Shown: positions 1,029 to 11,470 of the stretch, in pieces
How positions within the stretch are numbered: the first letter of the stretch is position 1
Layout of the letters: the number at the start of each line of letters is the position of its first letter
IMG/VR virus record: IMGVR_UViG_3300023171_000012
DNA: 20,000 nt
Reading direction: 5' to 3' (one strand)
Source: an uncultured virus (IMG/VR IMGVR_UViG_3300023171_000012)
Lineage: Duplodnaviria > Heunggongvirae > Uroviricota > Caudoviricetes
Program-made: the position numbers and the translations under genes
The notes under the pieces: generated by a model
What the model saw: only the letters and a program-made list of their open reading frames with translations
The model's database searches: none
Told to the model about the DNA's origin: nothing

Positions 1029-4000
1029 ATGAGCAGAGGAAGACCACCTAAGATTACCCCCGCACCTGCGCTGAACTATTACGGTTTGGAGCGGTTGGGG
1101 TATGCCAGTGCAATCCCCCTGACAGGTGACTATTTTGCAGATCAGCTCACTATTGAGTTTATCTGCTTTCGTATTTCACATCGTCGGAGTGAAGGCGGTC
1201 TGGATAGGTTTGGGCACATGAAGAAGGGCATCGACCTTCTTTACAATAACCCGGATCGGCCCTCCATGAAGTCGCTGGTCTGGAACCCTTGGGCCGAGCG
1301 CATGATGAGGAAAGCCTGTGAGTGCTCAGAGCTTTCGGTCGCTGGCCCGACCTCCGCTGGAAAATGCTGGTCCCCTGAAACGCCCATTCTCCGATTTGAT
1401 GGCACAATATGCCGGGCTGATGAAGTTCGGCCGGGGGATCTTCTCATGGGCGATGACAGTCAGCCGCGAACCGTCCAAGAAGTGCATTCGGGAACCGGCC
1501 CGATGTATCAGGTCACACCAATTCAAGGCGAACCATGGAGATGTACACCCGAGCATGTTCTCGTCTTGAAGAGAGCCTTCGCTCCTAAAAAATGCTGGAG
1601 ACGCGTGGGGGAGATTACAGAAGTATCGGCAGAGGATTATTTCAATGCCAGCATTCAATTCAAACGACAACATAAGCAGTTCTGTGTTGGCGTGGAATTT
1701 CCTGAACAACCAGTCCCCTTCGATCCCCGTTTGCTTGGGATATGGCTCGGCGACGGACACTATCATGGCTGCCGCATTTCCATACCCGACATCGAGCCTG
1801 ACGTTCTAGCATACGTCCGTGAATGGGCAGGTCCCGCAGGGTATCAGGTTGTGGTTCCAAAAGATTGGAACCCCGGCTGCCCGAGCTACCCAATCTATCC
1901 AGTAAAACAGATAGAAGGTTTTGGGAGAGGCCGTAACCCGTTGGCTCAGTTTTTCAAAAGCAATATACGGGATGGAGAGAAACGCATCCGTCCCGAGTAT
2001 CTCATCAATTCCCGGAAAGTCCGGCTGGAGCTTCTTGCCGGGTTGCTTGACACGGATGGGCATGCTGCCGGGACATACTTTGAAATAGCCACAAAGTATG
2101 GAGGGTTGAAAGATGATATTCTTTTCTTGGCACGATCTCTCGGATTTCGTGTGACGGCGACACACCGCTTGGCAACATGCCAGGGGAAAAAATTCCCATC
2201 TTGGAGAATCAATATCATGGGGGAGCTGTCGGAGATTCCTACTCTTCGGAAGAAGTGCCGAGACAAAACTCTCCGGGTGAATTCAGACCAGACAGGAATC
2301 ACGGTCTCCAAGGTGGAAGATGGCCCTTGGGTCGGCTTCTCCGTGGACGGGAATCACCGGCTCCTGCTTGGAGACTTCACTGTGAGTCACAATTCAGACC
2401 CTTACGCCGCGTATGCCCTGTTCAGCTATATTGCGGACCCGACACACACCAAAGTCCTCATCATGTCCACCACGTTGGACGGTGCGAAGCTGCGGATCTG
2501 GAAAACTTTCCGAGAATATGTGTCCGCGCTGCCCAATCTTCCGGGAAAACCTCAATGGAGCACCAACCGGATTCAGGGGCCAAATTACGCAGGAGATGGC
2601 TACGGCGATTCCTCCGGGGTTATGCTTCTGGCATCTGAAAAGTCTCGGGAGAGGGATGCCTTGGAAAAGATGCTGGGGATCAAGGCCCCCATGACAGGTC
2701 GGCCGGACAAGACTTTCGAGGCTCTGAAAGCTCGACCGGAGTTTGCCGATCTCGCAGAACAGTTCGATGATGAGTATCTTGAAGACCTGCTCCCCCGCTT
2801 GGCCAATCTCACAGATGACCGCGCCGGGAAGTTGATCTTAATCGTCGATGAAGCAACAGGACTCTCTGAATCCCTACTCCAAGCGATCAACCTGAACATG
2901 AAGCCCGGCAACGCCGGAAACCTTCAGGTCATTATGATTGCCAACCCGCATCTACATTGGGACGCCCACGGAATTTTCAGTGAACCAAAAGTCGGGTGGG
3001 AGAATATCACTATCGACGATGAGGAGTGGGAGACAAAAACCGGAGGAACTTGCATCCGATTCAACGGTGAAAAGAACCCGCGTCTCACAGAGAAGAACGA
3101 GCGATATGTCTGGATGCTTTCCCAGCAACGGATCGAAGATATTGCCCGCGACTCCGGCGGAAAAGGCAGTATCGGGTACTGGCGAATGGTTTTAGGGGCC
3201 TGGCTACCACAAGGTTCTGATTCGGGCATTTACAGCCAAGCAGACATCGAGCAGGCGGGAGCGATGAAGAAGGCGGTTTGGGGGTTCAGGCCACCAATCA
3301 TAATTTCCGCGCTGGATACCGCCTACACCAGCGGCGGGGACAAATCGAGCTGTTCATTCTTCAATTTTGGGCTTGATACCGAAGGCATCCAGACCTTGGA
3401 GCTTATCGAGCAAATCGCCATCAAGACGGACATCAATGACCTGAGCCGCCCGATTAGCTACCAGATGGTCCATAACTGGCGGAAAGAGTGCAAGGCTCGC
3501 GGTGTGCTGCCGGAGCATGCTTGCTTCGATTCCACTGGTGGCGGGATCTCATTCGCGGACATCGTGAAAACCCAATGGTCTTCTCAAGTGCTCGGAATCA
3601 GCGCAGGCGGCAAAGCCCCGAAGGTTGCCGTCGGCAGTGAAAAAGACCGCGATGGCAAGCCTGTGCTGGCCTCTGACCGCTTCTTCAACAGAGCCACCCA
3701 GTTGTGGCTTGGAGCGATGCCGTTCCTGCGCTCCGGCCAGATAAAAGGTATCCCCATGGCACTCGCCAAGGAAATCATCTCCAGGCAGTATGACAAGACC
3801 GGAGCTGCCGACGGACGGACGCTGAAGATCGAAGGAAAAAGAATTTTCAAGTCGCGGGAGAAGCACTCTCCCGATGATTCAGACAGCTTCTTCCTCGGCA
3901 TCGAGTTGGCGAAGGTCCGTCTCGGATTCAAACCTTCGGAACAAGCGGCAGCACCTGAAATGGTGACAGGCCGAAGTGGTGTCGGAACGTGGAAAGCGTT

Positions 4001-4046
4001 TTGCAACAAAGCCCGGCGCATCACGACGAAAAGAGGTCTCCAATGA
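1029..4046 (+). CDS. terL: Terminase large subunit, intein-containing
   Basis: Walker A GPTSAGK|S split by an intein, Walker B LILIVDEA, C-terminal RNase H-like nuclease acidic motifs (ALDTAYTSGGD, FDSTGGG, SPDDSDS); lies upstream of the portal-like gene. Confidence 0.9.
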   Translation: MSRGRPPKITPAPALNYYGLERLGYASAIPLTGDYFADQLTIEFICFRISHRRSEGGLDRFGHMKKGIDLLYNNPDRPSMKSLVWNPWAERMMRKACECSELSVAGPTSAGKCWSPETPILRFDGTICRADEVRPGDLLMGDDSQPRTVQEVHSGTGPMYQVTPIQGEPWRCTPEHVLVLKRAFAPKKCWRRVGEITEVSAEDYFNASIQFKRQHKQFCVGVEFPEQPVPFDPRLLGIWLGDGHYHGCRISIPDIEPDVLAYVREWAGPAGYQVVVPKDWNPGCPSYPIYPVKQIEGFGRGRNPLAQFFKSNIRDGEKRIRPEYLINSRKVRLELLAGLLDTDGHAAGTYFEIATKYGGLKDDILFLARSLGFRVTATHRLATCQGKKFPSWRINIMGELSEIPTLRKKCRDKTLRVNSDQTGITVSKVEDGPWVGFSVDGNHRLLLGDFTVSHNSDPYAAYALFSYIADPTHTKVLIMSTTLDGAKLRIWKTFREYVSALPNLPGKPQWSTNRIQGPNYAGDGYGDSSGVMLLASEKSRERDALEKMLGIKAPMTGRPDKTFEALKARPEFADLAEQFDDEYLEDLLPRLANLTDDRAGKLILIVDEATGLSESLLQAINLNMKPGNAGNLQVIMIANPHLHWDAHGIFSEPKVGWENITIDDEEWETKTGGTCIRFNGEKNPRLTEKNERYVWMLSQQRIEDIARDSGGKGSIGYWRMVLGAWLPQGSDSGIYSQADIEQAGAMKKAVWGFRPPIIISALDTAYTSGGDKSSCSFFNFGLDTEGIQTLELIEQIAIKTDINDLSRPISYQMVHNWRKECKARGVLPEHACFDSTGGGISFADIVKTQWSSQVLGISAGGKAPKVAVGSEKDRDGKPVLASDRFFNRATQLWLGAMPFLRSGQIKGIPMALAKEIISRQYDKTGAADGRTLKIEGKRIFKSREKHSPDDSDSFFLGIELAKVRLGFKPSEQAAAPEMVTGRSGVGTWKAFCNKARRITTKRGLQ
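1365..2393 (+). mobile_element. Intein (343 aa) with LAGLIDADG homing endonuclease
   Basis: Starts CWSPETPI, block B CTPEHVL, LAGLIDADG-like motifs LLGIWLGDG and LLAGLLDTDG, ends VSHN followed by Ser+1. Confidence 0.93.
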
Positions 4047-7532: not shown

Positions 7533-8651
7533 ATGCCTGATCCAGACCCCATTGATGAAGCCTTTGCCAACCTCGCCGCGAGTTCACCCGAACCCGTTGC
7601 AGAGGGGCCGAACGCATTCCTTGAAAACTTCGCGGAGCTTCCTTCCGCCGATGAACCCGCAAAACCCGATGACACACCTACGCCGACTGAAACGAAGCCT
7701 GATGCGGACACTGACACCGATGGCTTTCCTGACGAACCGCCGAACAAGTCTTCGGAATCCGCCGGAAATGTCTGGAAAGGTCTGAAGACCGAGCTGAAGA
7801 AGACCAAAGCCGACCTCCGCGCCGAGCGGGATACCAAGGCCCAAGAACTCGCCGCCCGCGACACCGAGCTGAACGAGCTGCGGGAGAAGACTTCCAAGCT
7901 GCCTGATCTGGAGCAGAAAGCCGCCTTCGTCGAAGAAGCCGAACGGAAGATTGCCATTCTCGATGTCAAACAATCCCGTGAATACAAGCAGGCCATCGAA
8001 GCCCCGCTTGACGCCATCGACGCTGCGGCCGAGATCATCGCCAAGGCGAACGAGGTCAAGCTGACCGATCTCCAAGATGCCATCATGGAAGCCGATCCGG
8101 TGAAACGCCGGGAATTGCTCCGCACGGTCGTTGCTGACATGGACGACGTGGACAAGGCCGAAGTCATCCAGATGGCGAAGGACACCCAAATCATCCTTGC
8201 CCGTGAGCGCGAGATGAGTTCCAGAGCCTTCGAGGCTCGCAAGGAGTTGGAAGCCATCACCAAGGAGAATGAGACCAAAGCCCAGGAAGCCGCTCGCAAG
8301 ACCTTCGAGACGGCTACTGAAAATTCGGTCGCAGAACTCCGCAAGCGTGTCCCGTTCGCAGAACTCACCGCCGGGGAGACCGCCGACGGTGTTTTCGGGA
8401 ATGTCCTGACGAAAGCAAAAGCCGTGAATCTCGACACCGCCACTCCGGCGGTCAAGGCATTCGCCGCCGCCGCCGGTATCTTGCTCCCCCGGGTCGTGGC
8501 TCAGTACGTCGCTGCTCAAGCGGAGATCAAGACCCTGAAAGCCCGTATTGCCGGAGAAAATGCCGACCTTCCCCGGGTCAGTGGTGATCCGACACCGACG
8601 CTGAATCAAAGCAAGGAAGTCGATTTTGCGAATTTCACACTTCCCACTTGA
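7533..8651 (+). CDS. Probable capsid scaffolding protein (372 aa)
   Basis: Acidic, Pro-rich disordered N-terminus followed by a long A/E/K coiled coil; upstream of the capsid gene. Confidence 0.65.
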   Translation: MPDPDPIDEAFANLAASSPEPVAEGPNAFLENFAELPSADEPAKPDDTPTPTETKPDADTDTDGFPDEPPNKSSESAGNVWKGLKTELKKTKADLRAERDTKAQELAARDTELNELREKTSKLPDLEQKAAFVEEAERKIAILDVKQSREYKQAIEAPLDAIDAAAEIIAKANEVKLTDLQDAIMEADPVKRRELLRTVVADMDDVDKAEVIQMAKDTQIILAREREMSSRAFEARKELEAITKENETKAQEAARKTFETATENSVAELRKRVPFAELTAGETADGVFGNVLTKAKAVNLDTATPAVKAFAAAAGILLPRVVAQYVAAQAEIKTLKARIAGENADLPRVSGDPTPTLNQSKEVDFANFTLPT

Positions 8652-8679
8652 CGGCACTGCAAGGATGTAGTGTTGTCGG

Positions 8680-8806
8680 GGTGTCAGCAGAGGACACCAC
8701 TTCGCTGCGCTGTTCGTTAAAGGCAGTCACCGGAAAAACAGATTCGTCTGCCGGGACCGAGCTGCGAACAGCGGCACAATTTTTAGAACATAGCGGGTAT
8801 CCCCGC
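8680..8806 (+). ncRNA. Structured leader/small RNA upstream of tmRNA (unassigned)
   Basis: Hairpin GGTGTC/GACACC; long imperfect hairpin GCTGTTCG...CGAACAGC with inner CCGG/CCGG and CAGA-TTCG-TCTG; hairpin GCGGG/CCCGC. Confidence 0.4.
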
Positions 8807-8811
8807 AACCA

Positions 8812-9171
8812 GGGACGCTTCCGGTTTCGACTGAACCGGGTATCCTATTGATAGCATGCAGAGGTTGATCGGTGGGCCTCTTAAAAAGCCGATCAAGAAT
8901 CCAAATGGCAATAACGTCATCAGCTTCAGCCGCAACGTCGCAAAGTCTTCGGACCTCGCGCTTGTAGCCTAAGCGAAAAACGGTCCCCGCAATGATCCGA
9001 TAAGCGGGAGACTCCAAACCGGATCAACAAACGGAACCCAGAGCCGTAAAGACTGGGTGGTGGATGGCGAGGAGGTTTTTACCAAAAGACCGAATCCCCC
9101 AAATATAAGCATGTTTGAAGTCAATAGGTAATCGGTTCAGGACAGGGGTTCGACTCCCCTGCGTTCCACCA
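8812..9171 (+). ncRNA. ssrA: tmRNA (one-piece, 360 nt)
   Basis: Acceptor stem GGGACGC/GCGTTCC with G3:U70 alanine determinant and encoded ACCA end; T-arm AGGGG-TTCGACT-CCCCT; P2 helices CTGAACCG/CGGTTCAG, CCTATTGA/TCAATAGG, GCATG; PK1 GAGG/CCTC plus TTGATCGGT/GCCGATCAA; tag reading frame follows. Confidence 0.95.
8907..8972 (+). other. tmRNA tag reading frame: (A)GNNVISFSRNVAKSSDLALVA*
   Basis: Resume codon GGC shortly after PK1, 21 codons, TAA stop; hydrophobic Ala-ending C-terminus. Confidence 0.8.
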
Positions 9172-9196
9172 CTTTCAGCCGAAAGGCATCAATATC

Positions 9197-9267
9197 GTGT
9201 GAAATCCCGGTTCGACTCCGGGCTTCTCCTCTGAAGAGGAGAGGTAGTTTAACGGCAGAGCGCACAC
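9197..9267 (+). ncRNA. Circularly permuted tRNA-like cloverleaf (YrlA/Y-RNA-like or permuted tRNA)
   Basis: Order on the genome: GTGTG (anticodon stem 3' strand), AAAT, CCCGG-TTCGACT-CCGGG (T arm), CTTCTCC, linker TCTGAAGA, GGAGAGG (acceptor 5' strand), TA, GTTT-AACGGCA-GAGC (D arm), G, CACAC (anticodon stem 5' strand). Confidence 0.8.
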
Positions 9268-9299
9268 CCTCAATTTCCCTGTAACAAGGGGACTCATAA

Positions 9300-9672
9300 A
9301 CACCAGAGGACCAATCACAAGCCCACCGTGTGACCGAAGGTGCCCGTCGTTTGTCGGGAATTTCTAGCCCAGTCGAGTGTCTGACTGGAAAACGGGGGAA
9401 GGCACACCACATTTCAGTTCACTGTCATTGAGGGGAATCAGAAAATCAGCGGCCAGCCAACGCCAGTCGAAAGGAACCCGGAGCGATCCGGTAATACTGA
9501 ACTCTGATTTAGCGACCTGAGCAGTGAATTGAAATGTGGTAACAGAAGGCTGTCTCTCACGAGTTGCCACATACGAGAGATAGTGCGGCCGAGCGAGTAA
9601 TCGCGATAGCCACCTGCATCCAGAAGATGCGCGGGAGAGCTGAACCAAGCCCGTAAAATCCTACACTCAGTT
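9300..9672 (+). ncRNA. Large structured ncRNA of unknown class (~370 nt; boundaries approximate)
   Basis: No credible ORF; 19-bp helix 9406-9424/9522-9540; nested helices GAATCAGA/TCTGATTT and CCGGA-GCGA-TCCGG; GTGCC/GGCAC enclosing CCAGTC/GACTGG; CTGTCTCTC/GAGAGATAG; GCGA-GTAA-TCGC; GCATC/GATGC. Confidence 0.65.
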
Positions 9673-9674
9673 AT

Positions 9675-9706
9675 CCCGATGTCGGAATTCCGACATCGGG
9701 GTTTTT
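9675..9706 (+). terminator. Rho-independent terminator closing the RNA cluster
   Basis: Perfect 26-nt palindrome CCCGATGTCGGAATTCCGACATCGGG followed by GTTTTT. Confidence 0.8.
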
Positions 9707-9746
9707 GCTTGATACCCGCCTGGATACCCGCTATTCAGGAAGGACT

Positions 9747-9869
9747 ATGAAACTGATCCTCCTCGCGCTTTGTCTCTGTGTCGTTTCCTGCGGAACTTCG
9801 ATCACCCTCACCCCAGATGGTGTGGTGATTACTCCGCCAACTGCTCCAATCGTCATTCCTACAAAATAG
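9747..9869 (+). CDS. Small lipoprotein (40 aa; MKLILLALCLCVVSCGTSITLTPDGVVITPPTAPIVIPTK)
   Basis: AGGAAGGA upstream of ATG; basic N-terminus, hydrophobic core and lipobox VVS|C; below the ORF-track length cutoff. Confidence 0.75.
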   Translation: MKLILLALCLCVVSCGTSITLTPDGVVITPPTAPIVIPTK

Positions 9870-10040
9870 ATGTCCATCGGAACCAGACAACAGCCTGAAA
9901 AATGGCTGGATTTTAAATTCCGCCACAAGACGAGATCGCGGAAGTGGGAAAAGCAGAAGAAGAACCGAAAACTCCGGCATCTGGCTTCGGTGAACCCTGA
10001 AGTAGGACCGCAGCCTAAGTATTGTGGCTGGGAGTGGTAA
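9870..10040 (+). CDS. Small highly basic protein (56 aa; MSIGTRQQPEKWLDFKFRHKTRSRKWEKQKKNRKLRHLASVNPEVGPQPKYCGWEW)
   Basis: ATG immediately follows the lipoprotein TAG; ends just before the capsid promoter; K/R-rich. Confidence 0.6.
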   Translation: MSIGTRQQPEKWLDFKFRHKTRSRKWEKQKKNRKLRHLASVNPEVGPQPKYCGWEW

Positions 10041-10048
10041 ATTTCATG

Positions 10049-10078
10049 TTGACATTCCAACAGTTTTTCAATAAACCT
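10049..10078 (+). promoter_or_regulatory. Putative sigma70-like promoter for the capsid gene
   Basis: TTGACA at 10049-10054, 17-nt spacer, TAAACC(T) as -10-like box; intergenic. Confidence 0.5.
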
Positions 10079-10255
10079 CCTCGCGAAGCAATTCTCAGCT
10101 TTTTCAAAAAGAGGATCTCTCAATACTACTGAGTGTTTAATCCGGCTGCAAGGCTGGCCGTTACCGGGCACGGGTCACGAACTGAAGCTTACCAGCATTC
10201 TGCTGCGTAAGGAACCAATTCCACCCCTTCTACCGGCCCATGGCCAACCCCTTTT

Positions 10256-11470
10256 ATGCCCGCACCCGACCTGAATGATTTGCTCGCGAGAAATGAGATT
10301 GCCCTTGCTGGGCAAATCTACAAATCCTCAATTAACGATTCCATCTGGAATGCTTTGGTCCGTAAGTCCCCTTGGCCTAACGGCATGGCGGACACGCTCC
10401 AAGTGCTCACCGTTGAGCGCAATCTTCCCGCCAACATCGACACATGGACTCCGTTGACCCCCAACGAAGACTCCAACACCTGTGTTCCTATCGCCGATGT
10501 CGTGCCTCGTGGCAACACCACTCGCAGCTATTCGCTGGAGCAAAAAGCCATCGAATCGGAAGACATCTGCGTCAACGACACGCGTAACGCCTTCAGTGTA
10601 AGCGACCAGATCCGGCACATGTTCGAAGGTCTCCGCGACGTGATTTCCTACACTTGGAAGCGCAAGGCCCAGCTCGACTACACCCGTATCTCCGAGCACA
10701 AGATCGTTGCCACCAACGGACTTCCCGAGTCTTCGAGCCACATGCCGACCCTCGCGGCCACTTCGCTGCTCACCCAGAAGATCCTCAACAAGATCTACGT
10801 CCAACTCATCGCGAACTCCGCGCAGCGTGACGGCGGTTCCCTCGGCATGCAGGACGGTCGCCCTCAGTTCATCCTCGTGACGGACATGGAGACCTCCGAC
10901 GACATCCTCCGTGAGGATTCGACCAACGCCGCTTTCCTCTACAACGGCAAGCGCGTTCCCGAACTCCTCGCCCCCCTTGGTGTGGATCGTGCCTTCCGTG
11001 GTTTCTACCACACCATCGACAACCTGCCACGTCGCTTCAACTTCACGGCTGGTGCTTGGGTGGAAGTTCTCCCTTACGTCACGACCGCCGCGACCAAGGG
11101 CGTCAAGGCTGCTCTCAACCCTGACTACCTGTCCGCGCCGTTCACCGACTCCTACGTGTTCCTCCCAACGGTTTTCGAATTCGTCGTTCCAAACTCCATT
11201 GGTTCGGTTGGCTCCGGCACCCAGTTTGCTGCTCAGGAATACATCGGCAAGATGAAGTGGCTCAACATCGCCGACCGCGAGGTCAACCCCGACAACAGCT
11301 ACGGCTTCTATCGTGCGGTCCTCCAGTCCGGTTCGAAGCCCATCAAACCACAGTTCGGTTTCGTCATCCGTCACCTCCGCTGCCCATCCGACATCGGTCT
11401 CCAGGCTTGCCCTGCGGGAACCTCGGGTGACTCCGCAGATCTGGATTCCGGCGAATCCTTCTTCGTCTGA
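10256..11470 (+). CDS. Probable major capsid protein (404 aa)
   Basis: Size, very strong codon bias (suggesting high expression), own promoter and terminator, position after the scaffold. Confidence 0.75.
   Translation: MPAPDLNDLLARNEIALAGQIYKSSINDSIWNALVRKSPWPNGMADTLQVLTVERNLPANIDTWTPLTPNEDSNTCVPIADVVPRGNTTRSYSLEQKAIESEDICVNDTRNAFSVSDQIRHMFEGLRDVISYTWKRKAQLDYTRISEHKIVATNGLPESSSHMPTLAATSLLTQKILNKIYVQLIANSAQRDGGSLGMQDGRPQFILVTDMETSDDILREDSTNAAFLYNGKRVPELLAPLGVDRAFRGFYHTIDNLPRRFNFTAGAWVEVLPYVTTAATKGVKAALNPDYLSAPFTDSYVFLPTVFEFVVPNSIGSVGSGTQFAAQEYIGKMKWLNIADREVNPDNSYGFYRAVLQSGSKPIKPQFGFVIRHLRCPSDIGLQACPAGTSGDSADLDSGESFFV

Follow-up and report, generated by a model that had tools for sequence, protein, structure and literature searches.

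Why does a transfer RNA (tRNA) shape lie back to front immediately behind the transfer-messenger RNA (tmRNA) gene of a phage? The question is raised by a 20,000-nucleotide (nt) stretch of DNA from an uncultured virus of the Caudoviricetes (IMG/VR record IMGVR_UViG_3300023171_000012), which was analysed as a whole and is called the window below. The original prediction, made from the letters alone, had described there a cloverleaf whose 3' half precedes its 5' half and whose acceptor stem is closed by a loop, and had proposed an orphan Y-like RNA or a tRNA mimic. The element (9197-9267, + strand) is best read as a genuine, selected, circularly permuted tRNA-shaped module, which is part of an RNA cassette and not a free-standing gene. 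The fuller reading that we prefer, an orphan YrlA-type tRNA mimic co-transcribed with the tmRNA and probably opened by RNase P, has by our estimate about an even chance of being correct.

A tRNA-shaped fold in permuted order, beyond chance

The element is adjoined on its 5' side by a one-piece tmRNA with an encoded CCA end (8812-9171, + strand), which was called by ARAGORN and matched Rfam RF00023 at 112.5 bits over model positions 1-374. Read 5' to 3', the element consists of the 3' strand of an anticodon stem, a variable loop, a T arm, a capped acceptor, U8-A9, a D arm, G26 and the 5' strand of the anticodon stem; the tRNA numbering is our own reading of the letters. It opens (9197-9205) with GTGTG at 9197-9201, the equivalent of tRNA positions 39-43, which pairs at 5 of 5 positions with 9263-9267, and with a 4-nt variable loop, AAAT, at 9202-9205. 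The T arm (9206-9222) has a stem of five base pairs (bp), CCCGG/CCGGG, and the loop TTCGACT, and was recovered in the sequence, by Rfam and by ARAGORN. The acceptor (9223-9244), seen in both the sequence and the fold, is formed by CTTCTCCTC (9223-9231) and GAGGAGAGG (9236-9244) and is without a CCA; its 7 bp, six Watson-Crick and one G-U, are lengthened by 2 extra bp to a helix of 9 bp capped by TGAA (9232-9235). There follow (9245-9262) U8-A9 (TA, 9245-9246), a D arm with two G-U pairs and a GG dinucleotide (GTTT/AACGGCA/GAGC, 9247-9261) and G26 at 9262, as also drawn by ARAGORN, and then CACAC at 9263-9267, the equivalent of tRNA positions 27-31. The core positions of a tRNA were all found by direct reading: U8, A14, A15 with U48, G18 and G19, G26 with A44, T54, T55, C56 and A58. 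Every part and coordinate listed in the original prediction was present in the sequence, including the absent CCA and the 25-nt gap after the tmRNA CCA, the gap having this length because the tmRNA ends at 9171.

Standard finders had been expected to miss the element, and they did: the tmRNA was the sole call of ARAGORN on the window and the sole Rfam match at the gathering threshold. We report the result of undoing the permutation, as the original prediction had suggested. Segment 9238-9267 was joined to 9197-9230 through a 7-nt loop of natural flank sequence, and the product was submitted to ARAGORN at default settings. A tRNA was called in 8/8 loop variants, compared with 0/500 for shuffled halves and 0/1514 for the same cut-and-join made elsewhere in the window. 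A strict scanner, set to a 5/5 T stem with a TTCRA loop, a 7/7 closed acceptor and a 4-pair D stem with GG, gave one match in the window and none in 71 related phage loci (both strands of 320,986 bases). The permuted cloverleaf has a free energy of -26.8 kcal/mol against a minimum of -27.8, and the segment 9172-9300 folds better than 198 of 200 shuffles. The tRNA-shaped fold is real and goes beyond chance.

Relatives of the element were present in metagenomes. The whole stretch was found in one leaf-litter run, possibly the source of the DNA, and parts of it in four aquatic or freshwater runs (X2 to X5), whose contigs were compared with the window over 8780-9720. Short contigs from X2, X3 and X4 span 9228-9543 with few differences. 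Within the X4 contig (9228-9408, 4 differences, depth 4.8) the change 9264 A>G turns the A-T pair with 9200 into a G-T pair, and the pair is kept. The X5 contig (260 letters) matches the tmRNA 3' end at 9104-9180 with 12 differences of 77 positions and one gap, skips 9181-9199, and after 6 nt continues with TGAAAT, a T arm of GCGGG/CCCGC whose loop reads TTCGAGC, and an acceptor strand of 7 letters unlike that of the window. Relative to the window's T stem, two of its pairs are changed on both sides with pairing kept, so that the compensatory changes called for in homologues do occur in the T arm. The X5 relative is without the GNCGAA-type string (see below), the upstream copy of a 10-mer repeat and part of GTGTG. 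Its T arm starts 15 nt behind the CCA, which is too close for an ordinary tRNA, and the place of this arm behind the tmRNA implies that the 3'-half-first layout recurs in a diverged relative.

Wider pattern searches gave no second case. The pattern 'CCACCA, 5-35 nt, TGAAAT, T loop' met 4 loci in viral contigs, all of them a different RNA of tRNA arrays and none with a tmRNA, and 16 loci in genome contigs, of which 15 were chance matches without an RNA gene and one was an ordinary tRNA. The looser 'TCCACCA, 5-35 nt, T loop' met at least 119 loci in viral contigs; among the matches listed none had a tmRNA ending there, and the arrangement of a tmRNA plus a permuted mimic was not met again.

The flanks of the element suggest another origin. 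Both strands of the enclosing stem are abutted directly by copies of a 10-mer direct repeat, CATCAATATC at 9187-9196 and CCTCAATTTC at 9268-9277, the latter following CACAC (9263-9277 together, + strand); the copies are identical at 8 of 10 positions (P about 0.0006 per random pair). The element could accordingly be a functionless evolutionary remnant, the junction of two tandem tRNA or tRNA-like copies whose outer halves have been lost. The repeat lies flush with the stem exactly where a duplicated loop would be, and recent copies of one gene would give perfectly complementary halves. The repeat has 10 nt, however, against 7 in an anticodon loop, and there is no trace of outer halves, with only 15 nt between the tmRNA end and the repeat and a 3' flank unlike a T arm. 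Also speaking against decay are the 2 extra acceptor pairs with their tetraloop cap, and the compensated T arm of the X5 relative, given how far its tmRNA 3' end differs. Decayed tandem tRNAs are unlikely on this evidence, and we give the functionless remnant a small probability. A separate candidate, in which the 3' half of the mimic is a copy of the tmRNA 3' end (a duplication of the att-site type), was rejected: beyond the common T loop, the acceptor-strand letters are alike by eye at 3 of 7 positions.

The element could also be a real permuted tRNA gene, whose transcript has its open end circularised or ligated and its acceptor opened, yielding a decoding tRNA with anticodon UCA supplied by the 3' flank. 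ARAGORN does read the anticodon TCA with 9268-9274 as the loop. tRNAs carry U at position 33. The loop obtained here, CCUCAAU, has C at that position, and CAAUAUC closes the 5' flank. Permuted tRNA genes of Cyanidioschyzon merolae, other algae and archaea have their parts in the same order as the element, the 3' half being encoded first and a short sequence closing the acceptor (PMC3978253; 10.1101/312249). Genes of the Cyanidioschyzon type mature to decoding tRNAs through a bulge-helix-bulge and a circular intermediate (PMC3978253). The folds of our element, in contrast, show no bulge-helix-bulge pairing of the flanks, a canonical anticodon loop (U33, purine 37) is absent, and the host is bacterial; a splicing endonuclease is not reported in bacteria (10.1101/312249). 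The 19 open reading frames (ORFs) of the window include no gene for RtcB or a ligase, and its long ORFs are open under table 11, so that recoding of a stop codon is not needed. We consider a decoding tRNA very improbable.

A further possibility is a second tmRNA gene, two-piece (permuted), of which the element would be the tRNA-like end. In such genes (RF01849-RF01851, RF04321) a T arm is likewise followed by an acceptor closed by an excised loop and by the 5' strand, in a tmRNA context, and tmRNA_permuted (16.2 bits) and cyano_tmRNA (15 bits) matched weakly and locally. These values are far under the respective gathering scores of 47 and 70, however, and ARAGORN reports no permuted tmRNA. The element has a full D arm, no tag-like reading frame was seen in 9268-9705, and the neighbour is an ordinary one-piece tmRNA. 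The third acceptor pair is A3-U70 and not the alanine identity pair G3-U70; the missing pair largely refutes a second tmRNA, which we regard as barely credible.

Comparison with YrlA Y RNAs

The original prediction had likened the topology to that of the bacterial YrlA Y RNAs. YrlA (RF02553; Chen et al. 2014, PMC4201824; 10.1101/312249) has the same order of parts, an enclosing stem made from 5' and 3' strands, the tertiary positions of a tRNA and no CCA, and occurs in phages. A permissive Rfam search of 9100-9700 aligned the YrlA model to 9205-9261 at model positions 30-81 of 114, taking up the T arm, the closed acceptor and the D arm in the same order, which bears out the likeness. The score of this alignment was 16.3 bits with an E value of 1.6, against a gathering score of 69 bits, so that the element fell short in the proposed check with the YrlA covariance model. 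The consensus, as read from the alignment, runs through an outer stem, an internal loop and a second stem to a 4-bp stem that encloses a 4-nt variable region, the T arm, the acceptor hairpin, UA and the D arm. The element matches the architecture of the tRNA-like module of YrlA exactly and shares nothing of the remaining YrlA.

A true Y RNA, that is a YrlA orthologue with its Ro60 site in the 5' linker and Ro60/Rsr supplied by the host or by a gene elsewhere in the phage, is unlikely by our reckoning. Its topology matches that of YrlA. The 25-nt linker (9172-9196, + strand) does contain a string of the GNCGAAN0-1G type, GCCGAAAG at 9178-9185, as predicted, and by our reading this starts 19 nt before the enclosing stem, compared with 21 positions in the Rfam consensus. 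Phage YrlA-like RNAs are also common, as shown below, and Chen et al. report YrlA in 22 phages (PMC4201824). The alignment, however, covers the core only, and the long Ro-binding stem formed from the RNA ends was not seen: the 5' linker folds locally as GCC-GAAA-GGC (9178-9187), a hairpin in which the GCCGAAAG string is enclosed, the linker having copy 1 of the 10-mer repeat at its end (9187-9196), and the 3' flank has a 6-bp hairpin of its own (9275-9292, + strand). The pairing that had been proposed between the string and TTTCCCTG (9274-9281) is poor by eye and did not stand. Moreover, the X5 relative lacks 9181-9199, the region that takes in the motif. Pairing of the linker with the 3' flank gave a duplex of -4.2 kcal/mol, no better than shuffles, compared with -8 to -28 kcal/mol (14 of 15 at -11 or stronger) in 15 YrlA-like elements from IMG/VR. 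This test is weak because the YrlA-like positive controls were themselves not separated from their own shuffles.

A partner gene was not found close by. The Ro60/TROVE gene lies within about 4 kb of YrlA and on the same strand (PMC4201824). None of the 19 ORFs of the window, which cover more than 4 kb on each side of the element, has a TROVE domain, in agreement with the original prediction. TROVE and tmRNA are likewise absent from three related viral contigs, one of which is complete, with terminal repeats (68,417 bases). Because a demonstrable Ro60-binding module is lacking, we name the element an orphan YrlA-type tRNA mimic rather than a Y RNA; of the alternatives first proposed, the tRNA mimic stood and membership of the Y RNAs was not supported.

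The phage YrlA-like RNAs against which the element has to be measured were collected from IMG/VR with the pattern 'T loop, 18-34 nt, window-like D arm', which met at least 120 loci (at least 124 matches, including that of the window). Complementarity of the closed acceptor was 7/7 in 20 and 6/7 in 9 of the matches listed. This two-peaked distribution separates closed-acceptor elements from ordinary tandem tRNAs; exceptions at 7/7 are at least one tandem tRNA gene pair (L069) and a locus that overlaps a called tRNA (L040). Among the same matches, YrlA scored 32-43 bits in 14 of 16 closed-acceptor loci, many over the full model (E up to 0.01), and none of 20 reached the gathering score, compared with 16 bits for our element. 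A TROVE (Ro60) gene was on 4 of 5 YrlA-like contigs tested and adjoined the RNA where checked. Phage YrlA with Ro60 is thus common and already known. These searches also carry a caution, in that many closed-acceptor permuted tRNA-like elements of viruses score under the Rfam YrlA threshold. As a side observation, an RNA that recurs in tRNA-array viral contigs (L198-L201 around the match, L019, L064, L093 and L101) has tRNA-like arms enclosed by a stem together with a CAGCAA-type motif. It ends in ACAGC-stem-GTT, several copies score 32-43 bits on YrlA, and it looks like a distinct subclass.

The RNA cassette and its phage setting

The window is phage DNA: a domain search of its 19 ORFs identified, among others, an endolysin, a virion structural protein and GDSL-lipase-type proteins. 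The element sits in a cassette of about 1 kb, in which the tmRNA and the 25-nt linker are followed by the mimic, some 400 nt of structured RNA and a terminator, and which lies between a scaffold-like gene and a capsid-like gene (10256-11470). The structured RNA behind the 3' flank hairpin (9293-9672, + strand) was identified from the fold, an inverted repeat and the relatives, and includes a long hairpin at 9406-9540 with 19-nt arms. From 9172 to 9710 the fold has -198.4 kcal/mol compared with -163.8 +/- 7.7 for shuffles (z score -4.48; 0/100 shuffles as good). In 9100-9700 no Rfam family matched this further RNA at E values up to 10. Within the long hairpin, changes in X2 at 9442, 9504 and 9510 each keep an inner-stem pair, and 9414 T>C breaks one pair. 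One X2 contig joins 9417 directly to 9529 and skips the 111-nt interior (9418-9528), which appears, from this comparison of sequences, to be optional among close relatives. The cassette is closed by an intrinsic terminator with a 13-bp stem and a T run (9673-9702, + strand; terminator scan).

We compared the locus with those of related phages. The capsid-like protein had 182 homologues, and from an alignment of 35 of them we took 68 metagenome and 3 viral loci, the 71 related loci already mentioned. ARAGORN found a tRNA or tmRNA in 0/71. The gap from the upstream 372-amino-acid (scaffold-like) gene to the capsid-like gene is 1604 bp in the window, compared with 183-730 bp in the 31 relatives that have both genes. 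Ahead of the capsid gene the relatives have in common a terminator, a box of the TTGAC type and a structured leader, and the terminator of the window is 93.5% identical over 31 nt to L145:1916-1946, in a locus without tmRNA. Because the gap is longer, none of the 71 relatives has a tmRNA and the terminator is common to L145, about 1 kb was gained in the lineage of the window between the upstream gene and the ancestral terminator, made up of the tmRNA, the mimic and a further 400 nt or so of RNA. Searches for closer kin were negative: no cultured phage was matched by blastn of 8700-10300 or by tblastn of the two neighbouring proteins, and in the viral contig collection the 372-amino-acid protein had no relative and exact searches with a 39-mer and a 36-mer of the locus gave 0 matches each.

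Several further features were noted at the locus. ARAGORN gives the tmRNA tag as ATSQSLRTSRL; a reading in another frame ends in ...DLALVA and looks closer to a usual degradation tag (8896-8970). The tmRNA, mimic and terminator are all bracketed by a perfect 13-nt inverted repeat found by repeat search (left arm 8790-8802, right arm 9722-9734, neither assigned to a strand), the 9-mer core of which has three occurrences in all in the window (8793, 9711 and 9723). These arms could be the ends of a mobile insertion, protein-binding sites or the partners of a long-range RNA pairing. The stretch 9328-9408 opens with CGTGTGA and closes with AACGG..GCACACC, as does the mimic, and has hairpins similarly placed. 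As a degenerate second copy of the module it was rejected, with 40 of 102 alignment columns identical and a fold no better than shuffles (z score 0.23). Between the terminator and the capsid promoter are two small ORFs on the + strand, 9748-9870 and 9870-10040, the first with a lipoprotein-like signal at its start (MKLILLALCLCVVSCG). In some relatives (L145:1586-1916 and the gaps of L140 and L138) an ORF of 71-97 amino acids lies between the scaffold-like gene and the terminator, the place that the RNA cassette takes in the window. A conserved box of the TTGAC type, followed by a structured leader of some 200 nt, precedes the capsid-like gene (window 10060-10255; L195, L129, L131, L138, L140, L145 and others). 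Two helices of this leader covary across 20 sequences, one pair being AU in 9 and GC in 6. Elsewhere in the window an intein with Hint and homing-endonuclease domains interrupts the large terminase gene (1029-4046).

Proposed processing and significance

The cassette lies between a late gene and the terminator of the late structural operon, no promoter-like site was found in 8500-10400, and it would be transcribed as one precursor, probably by read-through of that operon. Within this transcript the module would fold into the L-shape of a tRNA and be recognised by tRNA enzymes of the host. The comparison with Mycobacterium smegmatis is pertinent here. Its YrlA, alone among those tested, has a 7-bp acceptor, and it is cut by RNase P, after which CCA is added; most YrlA RNAs have shorter or longer acceptor stems and remain closed (PMC4201824; 10.1101/312249). 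Because the acceptor of our element has the full 7 bp (plus 2), like that of M. smegmatis YrlA, it is predicted to be an RNase P substrate, and by analogy with that RNA (PMC4201824) the cut would fall between 9237 and 9238. Unlike YrlA, the element has an acceptor helix of 9 bp, has no recognisable Ro60-binding helix or nearby TROVE gene, and lies inside a longer transcript directly behind a tmRNA. The proposed cut would part the tmRNA-bearing 5' portion from the RNA downstream; the tRNA mimic would be left nicked, with a 3' strand open to trimming and CCA addition. The original description of the element as non-chargeable is not secure, since the acceptor helix has its full 7 bp and 2 more. 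The mimic may act as a signal for processing ('punctuation'), or offer a tRNA-shaped handle or decoy, or do both. A working analogy is the mascRNA of MALAT1 (10.1101/312249), a tRNA-shaped structure within a longer non-coding transcript that is cut by RNase P and defines RNA ends. Signals of the mascRNA type are eukaryotic and, unlike our element, not permuted, so that RNase P directly frees the 3' end of the upstream RNA.

Several points weigh against an orphan mimic that is co-transcribed and opened by RNase P. None of the 17 runs listed is recorded as RNA; the ends of the molecule, its co-transcription and its cleavage by RNase P, like its role, are what we infer from the locus. The absence of a promoter-like site in 8500-10400 also counts here. 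From the tmRNA CCA to the predicted RNase P site there are 66 nt, so the cut would not itself create the tmRNA 3' end and a role in punctuation could be only partial. Comparative support is thin, coming from one 30-letter loose end in X5 and one low-depth contig in X4, with compensation seen in the T stem. The flush 10-mer repeat fits an origin by tandem duplication, which leaves room for a non-functional remnant. Finally, the TROVE negative covers the ORFs of the window, which is part of a contig of 72,094 bases, and Ro60 could be encoded elsewhere on it.

YrlA-type permuted tRNA mimics, including those of phages, are known already. What is new here is that the mimic has neither a Ro-binding module nor a nearby Ro60 gene, that its 7-bp acceptor is extended and capped, and that it is fused with a one-piece tmRNA in a cassette within a structural operon. 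A limited full-text literature search found no phage arrangement of this kind, with a permuted tRNA and a tmRNA, and this is not proof of absence. A bolder proposal, which we think rather improbable, is that one precursor gives both tmRNA and mimic, and that opening by RNase P leaves a nicked, CCA-tailed particle whose strands are joined to the tmRNA trailer and to the RNA of about 400 nt. If this were true, the particle would be a phage RNA of a new kind, two-piece and tRNA-headed, that acts on the translation or tRNA-surveillance machinery, and it would show a way in which phages can place RNA genes inside a late mRNA operon, by 'tRNA punctuation' that uses a back-to-front tRNA.

The mimics of the YrlA type have been defined by their partnership with Ro60. 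In the window the tRNA-shaped half stands without the Ro-binding half and is fused with a phage tmRNA. If it is expressed and processed as proposed, a construct of about 1 kb would permit direct tests of RNase P cleavage, CCA addition and effects on tmRNA maturation, and the tRNA-like module would be useful in its own right, as a processing signal, an enzyme handle or a decoy.

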